A DNA stretch of 32,000 nt from Sinorhizobium meliloti (GCF_017876815.1 NZ_JAGIOS010000001.1:3060001-3092000), one strand, 5' to 3'. Shown: positions 1,375-17,883, counted from the stretch's first letter. Notes: generated from the sequence alone by a model not told the origin. Translations and numbers: made by a program.

Positions 1375-2639
1375 TGTTTAGCCCGGGGACATGGCGGACA
1401 CCTGTTCGGATACATCACTGACGGATTGCTTGTTGGTCAAGTTGATTGTTGCGATGTGATGGGCACCGAAGAAAGCGCCATAGTGGCCGTCGCGGTCGAG
1501 CGGGCGGATGGCGAGGCGTTCTCCGCAGAAAGCTTTGGGAACTTTCCATAGCCGGCCTTTGAAGCTGACATAGGCTTTGGTGGCGGAAACCTTGCGCACG
1601 ATCTCGCCCTCGTCATAGACGGGCTCGGGCAGGCGATCCGGCATGGCGCGCGGACTGGGGTGGTAGCGGCTGGCCGGCACGTCATGATCGAGTGCCCCAT
1701 GCGGGCGCTCGAAATTGTAAAGCTCGCGCCAGGCATCGAAGGCGCGCTGAACGGCAGCAAGATCCCTGAAACGGTCAAAGGCGAACACCTCGGCCTTGAG
1801 TGTGCGATGGAAGCGTTCATTCTTGCCACGGCTCTGCGGATGGTAGGGGCGACTGTGCAGTAGGGCGACGCCGAGCTTCAGAAGCCATACGCCGAGGCCG
1901 GTCCAGCCCTCGCCTGACGGATCGCCCCATGGCGCGCCATTATCCACGAACATGGCGTCCGGCAGCCCGTAGCGCCGGAATGTCCGCTCCAGATGGCCGC
2001 GTACGGTCGCGCCTCGCTGATCGGCGCAGGCCATGAGACAAGGCACGAAGCGGGAATGGTCATCGATCACCGTCAACGGGTGGCAGAGCGTGGCGTCGGC
2101 CAATTGCACCCAGCCCTTGAAATCCATTTGCCAGAGCTGGTTCGGCGCCTCCTTCTCGAAGCGCTGCAACGCCGGCGCGCCGCCCGGCGGTGCTACGATC
2201 CGATCATGGCGCTTGAGGATGGCATGAACGGTCGAAACCGCCGGCGGGTGGGTTCCCTGCCGTTCCAGATAGCCCACAATTTTGCGCGCCCCCCATGCCG
2301 GATGCGCATCGCGCACCCCAAGCACCTCGGTCTCTACCGCTTCGTTGCAACGCATCGGACTTATATGCGGGCGCCGTGAGCGATCCGCCAACTCGCGGTC
2401 GCCGGCTTCCCACCGCGCCAGCCATTTATAACCGATATCCGGGCTGATCCCGAACCGCCGGCACAATTCCCGCCGGTTCACACCCTCCTCAAGCGCAAGT
2501 CGCACAAACTCCCGCCGCTCTCCCATCGTCGATACCTCTCGCCACGGCATGGAATACCCCCTTCGAAGCCAAATCCATGCCAGTATGACGTGTCAGCCAT
2601 CTCCCCGAACACCCGTCAGTTATGTCCCCGGGCTAAACA
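1375..2639 (-). mobile_element. Complete IS481-family insertion sequence (1265 bp)
   Basis: Perfect 18-bp terminal inverted repeats TGTTTAGCCCGGGGACAT (1375-1392 and the reverse complement of 2622-2639). A 5-bp direct duplication ACCAG flanks it (1370-1374 and 2640-2644). A single DDE transposase ORF fills the element and its stop codon lies inside the left IR. Confidence 0.93.
1378..2550 (-). CDS. IS481-family DDE transposase (integrase/rve core)
   Basis: N-terminal HTH (CRRFGISPDIGYKWLARW). rve catalytic signature: WQMDFKG, VIDDHSRF, DNGAPW, SRPYHPQSRGKNERFHRTLK. An alternative start is ATG at 2526 (MGERREF), which has a GAGAGG Shine-Dalgarno sequence. Confidence 0.92.
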   Translation of the reverse strand: MPWREVSTMGERREFVRLALEEGVNRRELCRRFGISPDIGYKWLARWEAGDRELADRSRRPHISPMRCNEAVETEVLGVRDAHPAWGARKIVGYLERQGTHPPAVSTVHAILKRHDRIVAPPGGAPALQRFEKEAPNQLWQMDFKGWVQLADATLCHPLTVIDDHSRFVPCLMACADQRGATVRGHLERTFRRYGLPDAMFVDNGAPWGDPSGEGWTGLGVWLLKLGVALLHSRPYHPQSRGKNERFHRTLKAEVFAFDRFRDLAAVQRAFDAWRELYNFERPHGALDHDVPASRYHPSPRAMPDRLPEPVYDEGEIVRKVSATKAYVSFKGRLWKVPKAFCGERLAIRPLDRDGHYGAFFGAHHIATINLTNKQSVSDVSEQVSAMSPG

Positions 2640-7671: not shown

Positions 7672-7875
7672 GCGGTCTGGGAAACATCTCTGAGGCCTGC
7701 AATCTCTCCTCACCCTCATCTCTGTGCTTGTTACAGAGATCCAGCAGCGCCGCGTCTGCGGCGCGGAGAACGTTCTTTCAGCCCAAGGACTTGGTCTGGC
7801 TGGATCCCTGTGACGAGCACAGGGATGAGGAGATCAAACAAGCCGCGGGGGTATTCCGGATCTTACAGGCCCTAG
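7672..7875 (+). repeat. Repeat family A, copy A2 (intact core, degenerate or partly deleted left terminus)
   Basis: The core 7700-7850 is near-identical to A3 and includes all four hairpins, with the uninterrupted loop ATCCCTGTG-ACGAG-CACAGGGAT. The right end is GGATCTTACAGGCCCTA. Confidence 0.85.
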
Positions 7876-7946
7876 CAAATGCTGGTCAAAAGAGCCCGAA
7901 CGCGCTTCAGGGCCGATCCAATCCATCAAATGCCGGGACTAAACAC

Positions 7947-12701: not shown

Positions 12702-12908
12702 TCAGGCGCAGCGCGCATAGGCCTCGAGTTGGTCACGCGTGAGGAAGCGCCCGTCGGACCGCGAGTTTAGCTCCGGATGGCTGTATTCGAGGCTCGGTAC
12801 CTGGGGAAGCTCAAGGGCCTGGCGTACGGTCATGATGCCGATTTCCTTCCGGCCGCTTTCGCGCTTCATGCTGACTTCGACGATACGATAGAGATTACGC
12901 TCTCTCAT
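12702..12908 (-). CDS. Small hypothetical protein (68 aa)
   Basis: The ORF has a GGGAGAG RBS just upstream of the ATGATG start and an AT-rich promoter-like region upstream (12912-13010). No family was recognised. Confidence 0.4.
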   Translation of the reverse strand: MRERNLYRIVEVSMKRESGRKEIGIMTVRQALELPQVPSLEYSHPELNSRSDGRFLTRDQLEAYARCA

Positions 12909-13354
12909 CATAGCTCTCCCGTATTATTTTCTTATGTCCCTCTTTTGATGGGACCTTAAACATTCGATATTGGTTTTTGTGAGACGGACTAAAATATAAC
13001 CCCGCAAGATGAAGCCTTCACGACAGAAATCGGGCGGTTTGGCGAAGATTTCCGACTTATTTCGAGGCTGGACCGCGCGATTGCGAAGGTCGCATTCCCA
13101 TATTCGCGGATTAAATCTCGGGATCGGTTATATTAGCGGTTTCTTTGTTTTTCAAGCGGTCCGACTGGGTGCAGGCGAATATTGCGCCGCACAAGAATTG
13201 TATTACGAATACATGGGCCCCGACTGGAGGCGCCGAGCAATGATCCGCGCAGGAGGCGGAGGATCACGCCATTCGCCATTCGCCATCGTCACCGGCAGCC
13301 GCCAACGCAAAGGATCGATCACGTGTCGCGGTCGGTTGCTCGGGTTATCGTGAG

Positions 13355-13591
13355 CTAGTGCGCTTTAAGGCGCGCCTCCTCAGCGGCGGAAAGAAAGAGT
13401 CTGCGTGCTTCCTCGCAGGTACGGCGCCCGTCGATCGCGGCGCGGCACGCGCTGCGCGCGGCGACATAATAGGGGCCGCGATAAGGCCAATGGTCCGCGA
13501 GGCACCGGAGCGCATCGGACGGTCCCTTGACCATGCGCACGTCACCCCCGGTCATTCCAAGCTCGATGGGATTGCTCCACAAGACCTGCAT
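13355..13591 (-). CDS. DUF982 domain-containing protein
   Basis: 78 aa. The pattern W..PI......G..R.V.GPSDALRCL.DHWP...GP.Y..A...C..A..G....EEAR..F..AAEEA matches the rhizobial DUF982 family. Strong GGAGGAG RBS 4 nt upstream of the ATG. Confidence 0.75.
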   Translation of the reverse strand: MQVLWSNPIELGMTGGDVRMVKGPSDALRCLADHWPYRGPYYVAARSACRAAIDGRRTCEEARRLFLSAAEEARLKAH

Positions 13592-14025: not shown

Positions 14026-14274
14026 ATGGTGACGGTTGCAGAGATCCGTTTGACTTGGTTGCCGCTGCAGAATGGGACTTTCTGCGCGATGCTTGGCATA
14101 CATGAAGTCGCCTTTGTCATGAAACGGCAGGCCATGAGCGATTGGGCCTGGCGTATCTCCCATTGCAACGGTACCGGTGAAACAGGCTTCCGCTACGCGC
14201 CGACGCTCGAGGGCGCCAAAGCGGAAGTTCTTGCCGGCATTCAGGAGTGGTTCCGTCAGGCGGGGTTTCAATGA
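14026..14274 (+). CDS. Small hypothetical protein (82 aa)
   Basis: ATG 14026 is preceded by GGAGGG. The sequence looks protein-like (MVTVAEIRLTWLPLQNGTFCAMLG...TLEGAKAEVLAGIQEWFRQAGF). The upstream part of the 155-aa ORF has no support. No family was recognised. Confidence 0.4.
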   Translation: MVTVAEIRLTWLPLQNGTFCAMLGIHEVAFVMKRQAMSDWAWRISHCNGTGETGFRYAPTLEGAKAEVLAGIQEWFRQAGFQ

Positions 14275-14300: not shown

Positions 14301-14398
14301 TAGAGCGGGATGAGGAGAAAAGTGTGCGGTTTTCCGTCCGCATCCCGCCCTAACTTCCTAGAGTCGATCACGTTCATGATGTCAGGTCGACCCGACCT
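14301..14398 (-). repeat. Repeat family B, copy B2 (inverted relative to B3, not associated with a family A element)
   Basis: The reverse complement aligns with 17485-17581. Shared features: hairpin AGGTCG-N3-CGACCT, CATGAACGTGATCG, and the long hairpin AGCGGGATG...CATCCCGC(T/C). Confidence 0.8.
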
Positions 14399-14433
14399 GA
14401 AATCATCGTGATTCAGCGACTATTGGTGCTGTG

Positions 14434-15186
14434 TCAGTCGCTCGAAGTGGAAGCCGGGGTTTCTCCACCGCCTGAGCCGGTATCCTGGCCGCCGCCGGAG
14501 CCGCTGTCCTGACCGCCGCCGGAGCCTTCGCCACCGCCGGAGCCGCTATCCTGGCCGCCGCCGGAGCCAGTGTCCTGACCGCCGCCGGAGCCTTCGCCGC
14601 CGCCGGAGCCGCTATCCTGGCCACCACCGGAGCCGCTGTCCTGACCGCCGCCAGAGCCGGTATCCTGACCGCCACCTGAGCCGCTGTCCTGACCGCCGCC
14701 GGAGCCTTCGCCGCCGCCGGAGCCGCTATCCTGGCCACCACCGGAGCCGGTGTCCTGACCGCCGCCAGAGCCGGTATCCTGACCGCCACCTGAGCCGCTG
14801 TCCTGACCGCCGCCGGAGCCTTCGCCGCCGCCGGAGCCGCTATCCTGGCCACCACCGGAGCCGGTGTCCTGACCGCCGCCAGAGCCGGTATCCTGACCGC
14901 CACCAGAGCCGGTATCCTGGCCGCCGCCGGAGCCTTCGCCGCCGCCGGAGCCGCTATCCTGACCGCCGCTGGAACCGGTATCCTGGCCGCCACCTGAGCC
15001 AGTCTCCTGACTTCCGCCTGGCGCGCTGCCGGCGTCGGCAACGACAAGGACGTCACCATGAGGACCGGCGAGCGCTGTACTCTGACGCAGGCCGTCATCG
15101 AACGACGCTAGTGAGGCAAATGGCGTGGCAACGACATAGGCGAGACCAAGCAATGAGCCGATGATAGTTTTTCCTGTTCTACGCAT
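14434..15186 (-). CDS. Secreted glycine-rich tandem-repeat protein, (GSGGGQD[ST])n with GGGEGS punctuation
   Basis: Signal peptide MRRTGKTIIGSLLGLAYVVATPFASLA. GGAAGGAAG RBS. About 190 aa consist only of G/S/Q/D/T/E repeats. This frame and strand were chosen because they are the only ones with a signal peptide and an RBS. Confidence 0.6.
   Translation of the reverse strand: MRRTGKTIIGSLLGLAYVVATPFASLASFDDGLRQSTALAGPHGDVLVVADAGSAPGGSQETGSGGGQDTGSSGGQDSGSGGGEGSGGGQDTGSGGGQDTGSGGGQDTGSGGGQDSGSGGGEGSGGGQDSGSGGGQDTGSGGGQDTGSGGGQDSGSGGGEGSGGGQDSGSGGGQDTGSGGGQDSGSGGGQDSGSGGGEGSGGGQDTGSGGGQDSGSGGGEGSGGGQDSGSGGGQDTGSGGGETPASTSSD
14461..15010 (-). repeat. Coding tandem repeat array: 24-nt units nested in 114-nt higher-order units
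   Basis: The marker GGAGCCTTCGCC recurs at 14521, 14587, 14701, 14815 and 14929 (spacings 66, 114, 114, 114 nt). The three 114-nt units are nearly identical. Confidence 0.9.
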
Positions 15187-15554
15187 TGTCCTGCTTCCTT
15201 CCCTAAAGTTTAGGACATGTTTCGAACCTCAGCCTCCAGCGCGGCGCAGGATGGCACAGAAAGTGCTGGCTTACGCAAGAATATTATAACTGACTGATCT
15301 GCAACAGAATATCCAGTTGCAGGCGCCGAGAGCTGCCCGATTTTGGCCACAAGATACAATCGACAGTATTAATTGCGAAGGAACAATACATCCAATAATC
15401 TGGTTCTGATCTGTTTCTTCTATCGGTTATATTAACGATCTCTCTTTCACTCGACGATTGTGCACGTGATTTGCTACAAGCCTCGGACCGCTGCCGCATG
15501 TAGCAATGGCAACGCAAAACGGGTTAAAAGGGATCAAACGAGAGCTGACGAGAC

Positions 15555-16712
15555 ATGATGGAATCGGTGCAAACTGACGGGAAGAGGGGAGAAAACAGGT
15601 ACTTCAAGGCGCCTGTCTTTGCCGTGGCGCCTATGATCGACTGGACCGATCGTCATTATCGGTTCTTCGCGCGCCAGCTCTCGAGCCATGCTCTGCTCTA
15701 TACGGAAATGATCGTCGCGGATGCGATCCTGCGAGGCGACCGGGAAAAGCTGCTCGGCCACGACACCTCGGAACATCCGGTCGCCCTGCAGCTCGGCGGC
15801 AGCGATCCGGCGAAGATGGCGGAGGCGGCGCGGATCGCCGAAGGCTTCGGCTACGACGAGATCAACATGAATGTCGGCTGCCCATCAGACCGGGTGCAGT
15901 CCGGCACCTTCGGCGCTTGCCTGATGCAGGAGCCGGCGTTGGTCGCCGACTGCATCGCGGCGATGAAGGCGGCGGTCAAGATTCCCGTCACGGTCAAATG
16001 TCGCATCGGCGTCGACGATCAGGATCCGGAAGTAGCACTTCGCGACCTCGTCCAGCGTGTCAAGGATGCCGGAACGGATGCCGTCTGGGTGCATGCCCGC
16101 AAGGCATGGCTCAAAGGGCTGAGCCCGAGAGAGAATCGCGAGATTCCGCCGCTCGATTATGGCCTCGTACACCGGCTCAAGGCGGAAAATGCGAATCTTT
16201 TCATCGGTCTCAATGGGGGTCTTCAAAGGCTGGATCAGGCGCTATCCCACCTCGATCCGCTGTCGCTGCCGACGGGAGGAACCACCGGGACTGCGGCAGA
16301 GCCGGCGTGCGGTGCTCCTCTCGACGGCGTGATGCTCGGCCGTGCGGCCTATCACGACAGCGGCCTGCTGACGGCCGCCGACGGCTATTTCGTCCACCCG
16401 CTGACGGGGGCCGAGCCCATGCCGGTCGATCGCGACGGCTTTTCCGATCATGACCATAAACTGTCGCTGGATTTCTGGTCCGGGATTCGTGACGCCATGG
16501 CGGACTATGCCGCCGCGCATATCGAGAATGGCGGCCGGCTGATCCACGTCACGCGGCACATGGTCGGGCTCTTTCAGGGCTGGCCCGGCGCGCGGCGCTA
16601 TCGTCAGATACTCTCTACCGAGGCCACCCGCAAGGACGCCGGTCCGCAAGTGATCCATGCTGCCTTCGACGCGGTGTTCGAGGCGGTAACGGCAAGGCAG
16701 GCGGCAGAGTAG
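15555..16712 (+). CDS. dusA: tRNA-dihydrouridine synthase A
   Basis: FAVAPMIDWTDRHYRFFARQLS, LYTEMI, VALQLGGSDP, INMNVGCPSDRVQSGTFGACLM, VTVKCRIG, RHMVGLFQGWPGARRYRQ. These are the full DusA signature. Confidence 0.92.
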   Translation: MMESVQTDGKRGENRYFKAPVFAVAPMIDWTDRHYRFFARQLSSHALLYTEMIVADAILRGDREKLLGHDTSEHPVALQLGGSDPAKMAEAARIAEGFGYDEINMNVGCPSDRVQSGTFGACLMQEPALVADCIAAMKAAVKIPVTVKCRIGVDDQDPEVALRDLVQRVKDAGTDAVWVHARKAWLKGLSPRENREIPPLDYGLVHRLKAENANLFIGLNGGLQRLDQALSHLDPLSLPTGGTTGTAAEPACGAPLDGVMLGRAAYHDSGLLTAADGYFVHPLTGAEPMPVDRDGFSDHDHKLSLDFWSGIRDAMADYAAAHIENGGRLIHVTRHMVGLFQGWPGARRYRQILSTEATRKDAGPQVIHAAFDAVFEAVTARQAAE

Positions 16713-17581: not shown

Positions 17582-17802
17582 TAAGGTCTGTTGAGATTGA
17601 TCCTAGGAAACCTATCGGAGGACTGCAATCTCTCCTCCTCCTCATCTCTGTGCTCGTCACAGAGATCCAGCAGCGCCGCGTCTGCGGCGCGGGAAGAGTT
17701 CATTCAGCCCAAGGACTTGGTCTGGCTGGATCCCTGTGACGAGCACAGGGATGAGGAGATCGAACAAGCCGTGGCAGGTATCCCGAATCTCAACAGGCCT
17801 TA
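17582..17802 (+). repeat. Repeat family A, copy A3 (best preserved, 221 bp)
   Basis: Terminal inverted repeats TAAGGTCTGTTGAGATTG / GAATCTCAACAGGCCTTA (16 of 18 positions). Four internal hairpins: ATCTCTGTG-N5-CACAGAGAT; GCGCCGC-GTCT-GCGGCGC; CAGCCCAAG-GA-CTTGG(TCT)GGCTG; ATCCCTGTG-ACGAG-CACAGGGAT. Confidence 0.9.
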
Positions 17803-17883
17803 GGTTGAGCCTGCGCTCTCCCTACGGGCCTCGCGGGCTTGCTGCTGCCGCGGCGAACCGGTAGGTCTATACCGGAGACGAAT

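Follow-up and report, generated by a model that had tools for sequence, protein, structure and literature searches.

Can a bacterial gene whose product consists almost entirely of one glycine-rich octapeptide be a genuine, selected gene, and what would such a protein do? The locus that raises this question lies on the minus strand of a 32,000-nt stretch of the Sinorhizobium meliloti genome (hereafter the window; GCF_017876815.1, NZ_JAGIOS010000001.1:3060001-3092000), at positions 14434-15186. A preliminary description of the window, made from the sequence alone, read it as a secreted, acidic polymer of GSGGGQD repeats and knew of no characterised family to which it could belong.

Identity of the locus and structure of its repeat

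We parsed the ORF at 14434-15186 into 250 aa with 18 octads, 5 hexads scattered among them and an incomplete unit at the end. We take its locus tag to be SMc04236, an assignment that rests on the published description of the protein. In that description, the Sm1021 isoform of Rns2 has 250 aa, 18 (T/S/E)GSGGGQD octads and 5 interspersed (S/E)GSGGG hexads (Yu et al., Sci Adv 2024, PMC11290524), and our parse agrees with it. Taken whole, the best explanation is that the ORF is rns2 (SMc04236), a stand-alone, monocistronic orphan of the S. meliloti/S. medicae clade, and we regard this as highly probable. The remark that no family with this repeat had been characterised is therefore outdated, since rns2/SMc04236 was characterised genetically in 2024 as the bacterial determinant in NS2-mediated discrimination (PMC11290524). 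As the gene and its genetic role were published then, in a paper that states the biochemistry of Rns2 to be unknown, our finding has no claim to novelty. The window is S. meliloti chromosome: over 4 kb, the region has 97.6% identity with the chromosome record of strain Ak57, where the orthologue lies between znuB/zur/gamma-CA/FAH and dusA/csp. That chromosome record carries the wrong label pSymB, and the rns2 orthologue in it is annotated as "hypothetical protein".

Rns2 comprises a 27-aa Sec-type signal sequence, a 34-aa linker, a 180-residue array and a 9-aa tail (sequence parse), in keeping with the signal-peptide-like N-terminus and ~30-aa linker first described. The features of the coding sequence are as follows.

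14434-15186, minus strand: rns2 (SMc04236) coding sequence, 250 codons plus stop, ATG start (ORF list; match to Sm1021 Rns2; frame kept in five orthologues)
15106-15186, minus strand: Sec-type signal sequence MRRTGKTIIGSLLGLAYVVATPFASLA, codons 1-27, cleavage predicted by inspection between ASLA and S
15004-15105, minus strand: non-repeat linker SFDDGLRQSTALAGPHGDVLVVADAGSAPGGSQE, codons 28-61, nearly invariant between taxa, under purifying selection; a search of 1.84 billion cluster representatives gave no relative outside the clade
14464-15003, minus strand: repeat array, codons 62-241, with 18 octads xGSGGGQD, 5 interspersed hexads xGSGGG and a terminal TGSGGG
14596-14937, minus strand: three 114-nt (38-aa) higher-order units, each EGSGGGQD plus three octads plus a hexad (Tandem Repeats Finder period 114; identities)
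14464-14595, minus strand: two 66-nt (22-aa) units, each EGSGGGQD plus an octad plus a hexad (Tandem Repeats Finder period 66; 92.4% identity)
14434-14463, minus strand: C-terminal tail ETPASTSSD (residues 242-250) plus stop, kept in S. meliloti-like taxa and replaced by ESPTTTPSN in S. medicae

Residues 62-241 contain G (95), S (34), Q (18), D (18), T (10) and E (5) and nothing else; these are the six residues originally listed, although the stretch measures 180 residues and not the ~190 given for it. With O for an octad xGSGGGQD and h for a hexad xGSGGG, the unit string reads OOhOOOOhOOOOhOOOOhOOhOOh, and GGGEGS is consequently spaced by 38 aa three times and then by 22 aa twice, so that the periodicity of 38 residues first proposed holds for three intervals and fails for the last two. 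Over 14461-15011, Tandem Repeats Finder returned period 24 (23.8 copies), period 66 and period 114 (4.6 copies, 91% matches, score 810). The three consecutive 114-nt units (14824-14937, 14710-14823 and 14596-14709) are nearly identical, as had been noticed, with pairwise identities of 96.5, 95.6 and 99.1%; the two 66-nt units that follow them are 92.4% identical. By comparison, the mean DNA identity among the 18 octads is ~82%, and at the protein level octad positions 2-8 are invariant except for one G-to-S. Among the alleles compared (see below), the 114-nt unit was found in S. meliloti only, and this restriction, together with the higher identity of the units than of the octads, bears out the recent origin suggested for them. 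The repeat structure of the ORF is incompatible with chance, and the preliminary description of it holds except for minor numbers.

The predicted mature protein is highly acidic, again as first described: 18.6 kDa, 30 D+E against 1 R, net charge ~-29, 45% Gly and GRAVY -1.04. Since it holds a single trypsin site, most of it would be invisible to trypsin-based proteomics; our search of the literature found no usable S. meliloti exoproteome or periplasm proteomics.

Reading frame, expression and natural alleles

An Ala/Pro-rich ORF at 14403-15098 overlaps the array, is open for 231 codons in the window and has a sub-threshold match to Cornifin (25.1 bits vs a cut-off of 34.8). The real product might accordingly belong to this or another frame or strand, or the array might be non-coding. 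The start and length of the Ala/Pro-rich ORF vary between taxa, however (231, 222, 191 and 152 aa, from different start codons). Every complete allele has the same ATG, signal segment and tail in the GSGGGQD frame. Besides the window, these alleles are four from metagenomes and four full-length orthologues taken from genome records, those of S. meliloti Ak57, Sinorhizobium sp. C101, S. medicae USDA1037 and Ensifer sp. USDA 6670. Comparison of S. meliloti with S. medicae over the 61 non-repeat codons gave pS 0.275 and pN 0.064 in the GSGGGQD frame (pN/pS ~0.23), whereas pN exceeded pS in each of the other two frames, and the differences between the two species fell on codon positions 1/2/3 as 22/26/78. 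Within the array, pairwise differences among the 18 octads fell on these positions as 82/101/469, nearly all of the position-1 and position-2 changes being in the variable first codon. Such a concentration on position 3 means that the GSGGGQD peptide is under purifying selection, beyond mere recent duplication, and that the motif itself matters, since selection holds it invariant while synonymous sites drift. Moreover, deletion of rns2 and its transfer each give phenotypes (PMC11290524). The comparative data thus refute the alternative-frame reading, to which we attach virtually no probability, and uphold the GSGGGQD frame and the minus strand.

Published transcript data show that the gene is expressed. 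SMc04236 mRNA was up 3.23-fold and 2.95-fold in two JspA-overexpression comparisons (p<0.001; PMC10659215 S6-S8 Tables), and JspA overexpression activates ExoR-ExoS-ChvI envelope-stress signalling (PMC10659215). The gene also appears in the JspA, ExoR/ExoS, ChvI-regulon, NCR247-treatment and podJ1 gene sets of that study (PMC10659215 S6-S8 Tables). Expression of rns2 therefore changes with ChvI pathway activity, with a rise of about 3-fold on activation of ExoR-ExoS-ChvI. Two routes to refutation had been set out beforehand, namely lack of transcription or translation evidence and conservation of another frame or strand such as the Ala/Pro-rich one; given the conserved frame and the published expression, both fail.

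The flanks of rns2 carry the following features.

15194-15203, minus strand: strong Shine-Dalgarno block GGGAAGGAAG, 7 nt before the ATG, invariant in five taxa
15187-15286, minus strand: conserved 100-nt promoter-proximal region/leader, 92% identity between S. meliloti and S. medicae
15283-15288, minus strand: TATAAT, candidate -10-like hexamer with a poor -35, ~97 nt ahead of the ATG, invariant in five taxa
15335-15348, no strand assigned: GCCCGATTTTGGCC, GCC-N8-GCC, candidate ChvI box, at the same position in five taxa and the only one in the 400 nt upstream
14301-14426, minus strand: structured 3' flank with two strong hairpins, the second with a terminator-like stem and a T-run (14342-14325); MFE -57.4 kcal/mol, z = -5.5

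The identity of the leader compares with ~70% further upstream and with the coding pS given above. Its predicted fold pairs the Shine-Dalgarno region, but RNAalifold detected no covariation in the leader and we make no claim of RNA structure for it; a search of the whole window against Rfam gave no match. SMc04236 is absent from the transcription start site supplements of Schluter 2013. The candidate box fits N-GCC-N8-GCC, the consensus quoted for ChvI of S. meliloti (PMC9731502). It lies ~65 nt upstream of the -10-like element and, having only 6 specified bases, carries little information, which makes it weak evidence for a ChvI box. The neighbours of rns2 encode FAH, gamma-carbonic anhydrase, Zur, ZnuC, DusA and UvrB, with no T1SS or glycosyltransferase among them, and homology to relatives ends just past the rns2 promoter. 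These housekeeping neighbours, the break in homology and the gene's own flanks make rns2 look monocistronic and self-contained. Insertions beside dusA in relatives contained no integrase within the short loci examined.

Length polymorphism between strains had been predicted from the near-identical units, and it was found: the nine complete alleles measure 100, 188, 206, 211, 212, 224, 236 (two) and 250 aa, and within S. meliloti the Ak57 allele is shorter than that of the window. Their structures are listed here.

Sm1021-type (window), 250 aa: OOhOOOOhOOOOhOOOOhOOhOOh
S. meliloti Ak57, 211 aa: 39 codons missing, which amounts to a 38-aa unit and a single Gly codon
Sinorhizobium sp. C101, 224 aa: 15 O followed by hhOOh
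Ensifer sp. USDA 6670, 206 aa: 10 O followed by hOOhhOOh
S. medicae (genome and metagenomes), 188, 212 and 236 aa (the last on two contigs): 14, 17 or 20 O, with no internal hexad
Metagenome contig L011, 100 aa: 3 O, which may reflect collapse of short reads

Internal hexads rise stepwise, from 0 in S. medicae through 2 in C101 and 3 in USDA 6670 to 4-5 in S. meliloti, and the longest uninterrupted run of octads is 14-20 in S. medicae, 15 in C101, 10 in USDA 6670 and 4 in S. meliloti. The array would evolve through unequal recombination or slippage between its 24-, 66- and 114-nt units; rapid variation in length and pattern would result, with GSGGGQD itself kept invariant by selection.

Outside these taxa we found next to nothing. 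A scan with a back-translated two-octad pattern (one genome per species, 185,579 species) had matches confined to S. medicae, Ensifer sp. USDA 6670 and an isolated, ORF-less site in an actinomycete MAG; S. meliloti was not returned. In a plasmid/replicon collection, Rns2 occurred in four Sinorhizobium records only. A search with the first 60 aa had been proposed as a check, and an exhaustive phmmer search of 1.84 billion cluster representatives with the N-terminal 62 aa found no relative except a truncated Rns2 fragment (P0003). A second phmmer match (P0004) was rejected as an artefactual ORF of tandem copies, with 12 matched stretches. Against a 5.8-billion-protein collection, the N-terminus alone had no match and whole Rns2 had 2 compositional matches, one of them an SSB tail, low-complexity words having flooded the candidates; three Rns2 alleles had no exact-sequence cluster in the collection. 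A genome contig scan based on the N-terminus gave 600 pattern matches, of which tblastn confirmed 0. The narrow matches in these scans and the absence of N-terminal relatives mark Rns2 as a lineage-restricted orphan, and, judged by the sequences searched, the family is confined to the meliloti/medicae clade.

Host discrimination and the location of Rns2

The known effect of rns2 is on the choice of partner. A transposon screen recovered the allele of S. medicae ABS7, which has 220 aa and 18 uninterrupted octads (PMC11290524). Deletion of ABS7 rns2 allowed S. medicae to nodulate Medicago DZA220-H, expression of the ABS7 allele in Sm1021 abolished nodulation, and knockout of the plant MLD-LRR receptor kinase NS2 restored it (PMC11290524). 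The S. medicae allele is thus necessary for the NS2 nodulation block, and sufficient once in Sm1021, while the S. meliloti allele gives no block; among natural strains, 22/24 S. medicae were blocked and 28/30 S. meliloti nodulated (PMC11290524). No physical interaction between NS2 and Rns2 was detected, and the authors favour an indirect product (PMC11290524). We found no domain swaps in that study, and S. meliloti and S. medicae also differ in the C-terminal tail and at ~9 of the first 62 residues. Nevertheless, it is plausible that what the NS2 pathway senses as specific to the allele is the repeat array, and not the few substitutions in its flanks. In S. meliloti, interruption of the long octad run by hexads would allow the protein to go unrecognised, and sensing may target Rns2 or a fragment of it, or act through an effect of Rns2 on the envelope.

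How the plant could sense Rns2 depends on where the protein resides. The N-terminus, whose architecture we judged by inspection, begins with the n-region MRRTGK (+3), followed by the 14-aa h-region TIIGSLLGLAYVVA and the c-region TPFASLA before S, with Pro at -6 and S-L-A at -3 to -1. It has the positive n-region, the h-region of 7-15 aa and the small residues at -3 and -1 expected of a Sec/SPase I substrate. ASLA is invariant in all alleles, as are most of residues 1-61 in the five-orthologue alignment. This invariant n/h/c architecture favours a soluble, exported polyanion over the membrane anchor assumed in PMC11290524, and we consider that the N-terminus is probably a Sec signal peptide cleaved between ASLA and S, and not a signal-anchor. 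After cleavage there, a polyanion of 18.6 kDa, with a net charge of -29 and 45% glycine, would be set free in the periplasm or envelope. The "extracellular polymer" of the preliminary description goes further than the evidence, as a Sec signal alone reaches only the periplasm/envelope and the published study treats the N-terminus as a membrane anchor.

That study calls the N-terminal segment a transmembrane domain and presents an AF2 model in which the octads form a beta-repeat domain of 9 turns with 2 octads per turn (PMC11290524); a 2026 review likewise calls Rns2 a transmembrane protein and otherwise adds nothing further. Rns2 could then be an uncleaved, N-terminally anchored (type II) inner-membrane protein whose glycine-rich region is a compact periplasmic beta-repeat solenoid, as modelled by Yu et al., and the plant would sense not Rns2 but a downstream envelope or metabolic product. 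The uncharged stretch of residues 7-29 (23 residues) does have the length needed to cross a membrane, the ChvI regulon includes many envelope proteins (PMC10659215), and the failure to detect NS2-Rns2 binding fits an indirect signal. However, an SPase I c-region of textbook form, followed by an acidic mature N-terminus and invariant across alleles, is at odds with an uncleaved anchor, and the array offers no hydrophobic residue for a solenoid core. The main text of PMC11290524 gives no confidence values for its model, and our own single-sequence AF2 run was of low confidence, with a pLDDT of 40.5 overall and ~35 over the array, where it placed no secondary structure; its helix at residues 8-37 agrees with an anchor. 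A "metabolic product" would be unlikely from a low-complexity, non-enzymatic protein, and the dominant, allele-specific effect of ABS7 rns2 in Sm1021 (PMC11290524) is typical of a directly sensed determinant. We therefore consider the anchored solenoid unlikely. For the exported polyanion, disorder and cation binding, as first suggested, are plausible.

These elements can be joined into one tentative scheme. Rns2 would be a cleaved, exported polyanion; the host would sense, directly or via a co-receptor, the length of its uninterrupted octad run; and S. meliloti would have escaped NS2-type surveillance by amplifying hexad-bearing units. The native role would be protective: induced through ChvI, Rns2 would serve in the envelope as an acidic buffer or decoy that counters cations or cationic NCR peptides; the gene is a member of the NCR247-treatment set mentioned above. 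The stepwise series of internal hexads described above supports this order of escape, although the scheme in its entirety is a conjecture that we think quite improbable. In any case, very few bacterial genes are known to govern the choice of partner between two close rhizobial species and their legume hosts. As rns2 is one of them, a biologically important gene had been picked out from raw sequence. The graded natural alleles are ready material for experiments on octad run length.

Comparison with known systems

The RTX nonapeptide (GGxGxDxUx; PF00353, HemolysinCabind) is a short, tandem, Gly/Asp-rich repeat, and the SGGGQD of Rns2 resembles its Ca-binding turn: in our own alignment, SGGGQD and GGxGxD agree at 5/6 positions. 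The array might on this basis be an RTX-like, Ca2+-binding beta-roll with RTX-type secretion that binds Ca2+ via its SGGGQD turns, the more so as each unit holds one Asp, the protein is highly acidic and each turn of the published Rns2 model holds two repeats, as a beta-roll does (PMC11290524). However, RTX proteins are built of nonads with a hydrophobic U and carry a C-terminal T1SS signal, whereas Rns2 is built of octads and has an N-terminal Sec signal, with no C-terminal T1SS signal and no T1SS genes nearby. Its period is 8 and not 9, residues 62-241 hold no hydrophobic core position, and neither PF00353 nor any other Pfam family matched at E<=1. The array was from the outset said not to be RTX, and for these reasons we agree, regarding an RTX-type beta-roll as very improbable.

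Neither Pfam nor NCBIfam has a family for Rns2; the only matches were sub-threshold and compositional, to Cornifin for the Ala/Pro-rich frame and to the SD-repeat MSCRAMMs for Rns2. The latter, at 12.8 bits vs a cut-off of 2500, are the one resemblance in NCBIfam. The SD-repeat stalks of these staphylococcal proteins (SdrC/SdrD/ClfB) share with Rns2 a repeat region that is acidic, of low complexity and polymorphic in length, within a protein exported to the surface or envelope. Their repeats are dipeptides, however, and belong to Gram-positive proteins that are anchored through LPXTG and possess folded domains for ligand binding, which are missing from Rns2. The glycine-rich families of Pfam gave no match at E<=1, and their likeness to Rns2 is high glycine content alone; we saw no sign of homology, and an annotation on that ground is compositional. 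A PDB sequence match, 9ufe (GQPS-repeat), was rejected as compositional.

Pairs of the MAMP/receptor-kinase type, such as flg22/FLS2, offer a functional comparison. Rns2 acts like an avirulence- or MAMP-type determinant, as an allele-specific trigger of a kinase-dependent restriction of infection (PMC11290524). Unlike MAMPs with conserved epitopes, however, it is a polymorphic, low-complexity repeat whose direct binding to NS2 was not detected (PMC11290524). Rns1, of the Rns1/NS1 pair in the same system, is a type I-secreted, polysaccharide-lyase-like protein unrelated to Rns2. With the published Rns2/SMc04236 (PMC11290524) our locus shares the gene, the species background and the N-terminal hydrophobic segment, with no substantive difference. 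To that account we add the higher-order DNA repeats, the intermediate alleles of Sinorhizobium sp. C101 and Ensifer sp. USDA 6670, the selection tests, the restriction of Rns2 to one clade and the reading of its N-terminus as a probable signal peptide.

The rns2 leader and the rns2-dusA junction

On the 5' side of rns2 (SMc04236), which encodes the octad-repeat protein Rns2, S. meliloti and S. medicae share 92% identity across the 100 nt preceding the ATG (window 15187-15286, - strand), far above the identity of the adjoining intergenic DNA (~70%) and beyond what is seen at synonymous sites (pS 0.275). In the predicted fold of this leader, the SD region is paired with a UCCUGC stretch upstream, and no covariation supporting the fold was found among the 4 sequences. 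Conservation of the leader may reflect post-transcriptional control or the footprint of a regulator.

Further upstream, the junction between rns2 and dusA is uninterrupted in the S. meliloti window. It is broken by an insertion of ~2.3 kb in Ensifer sp. USDA 6670 (L005 3782-6132) and by one of ~1.5 kb in S. medicae (L004 1623-3132), and homology to Sinorhizobium sp. C101 ends at the same junction point (L002 beyond 6049). A duplicated dusA 5'-end fragment of ~100-195 bp borders both insertions, and its counterpart lies in the window as follows:

15444-15649, dusA 5' end

The insertions look like dusA-targeted integrative elements or remnants thereof; no integrase ORF was seen in them within the short loci covered.

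The 3' flank of rns2 and neighboring small ORFs

Four features were recorded in the window on the 3' side of rns2:

14301-14426, - strand, two long hairpins in the 3' flank of rns2 (MFE -57.4 kcal/mol, z = -5.5)
14026-14274, + strand, small ORF of 82 aa, hypothetical protein in the annotation of S. meliloti Ak57
13355-13591, - strand, DUF982 ORF of 78 aa (PF06169 match, E 1e-25)
12702-12911, - strand, small ORF of 69 aa, hypothetical protein in the Ak57 annotation

Only the second of the two hairpins has a T-run. The first, consisting of 8 bp and a 3-nt loop within a longer stem, may be an mRNA-stabilizing or REP-like element. The 82-aa ORF, which is convergent with the 3' end of rns2, is kept in both C101 and USDA 6670; neither it nor the 69-aa ORF had a Pfam match. 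The DUF982 ORF falls in the apparently gene-poor region that separates rns2 from the FAH gene; the Ak57 feature table in PLSDB does not list it and skips locus tag 26455.

Octads and octad-like repeats in metagenomic contigs

Two metagenome contigs carried ORFs of interest:

L006 (ERZ1645185 NODE-81778, 1070 nt), 468-872, - strand, lipoprotein-like ORF beginning MKTVLISLCTALLAATGC, then a Cys-rich segment
L011 (Ga0307409_100273519), 132-434, complete Rns2 allele of 100 aa with three octads only

Repeats of the lipoprotein-like ORF, DTGSGG(G)QD and EGDTGSGG, strongly resemble the Rns2 octad, and the ORF, which lies on a truncated contig, had neither the Rns2 N-terminus nor a Pfam match. The ORF is otherwise unrelated to Rns2, and its motif is apparently an independent occurrence. 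The 100-aa allele has N-terminal residues of the C101 type, and its three-octad array could be either a genuine extreme contraction or a collapse of the short-read assembly.

Mobile and dispersed repeats

The following elements were located in the window:

1176-2710, IS481-family insertion sequence copy with an ORF at 1378..2550 (- strand)
7672-7876 and 17604-17804, dispersed intergenic repeat of ~190-200 bp

The IS481-family copy matches an element of Ak57 annotated as ISRm20. Since the Ak57 element lies at another site, near cspA, the location of this IS is polymorphic between strains. The intergenic repeat, whose copies share 83-89% identity, occurs in tandem in C101 (L002 3353-3758), and it may be an element of the RIME/Sm-repeat type.
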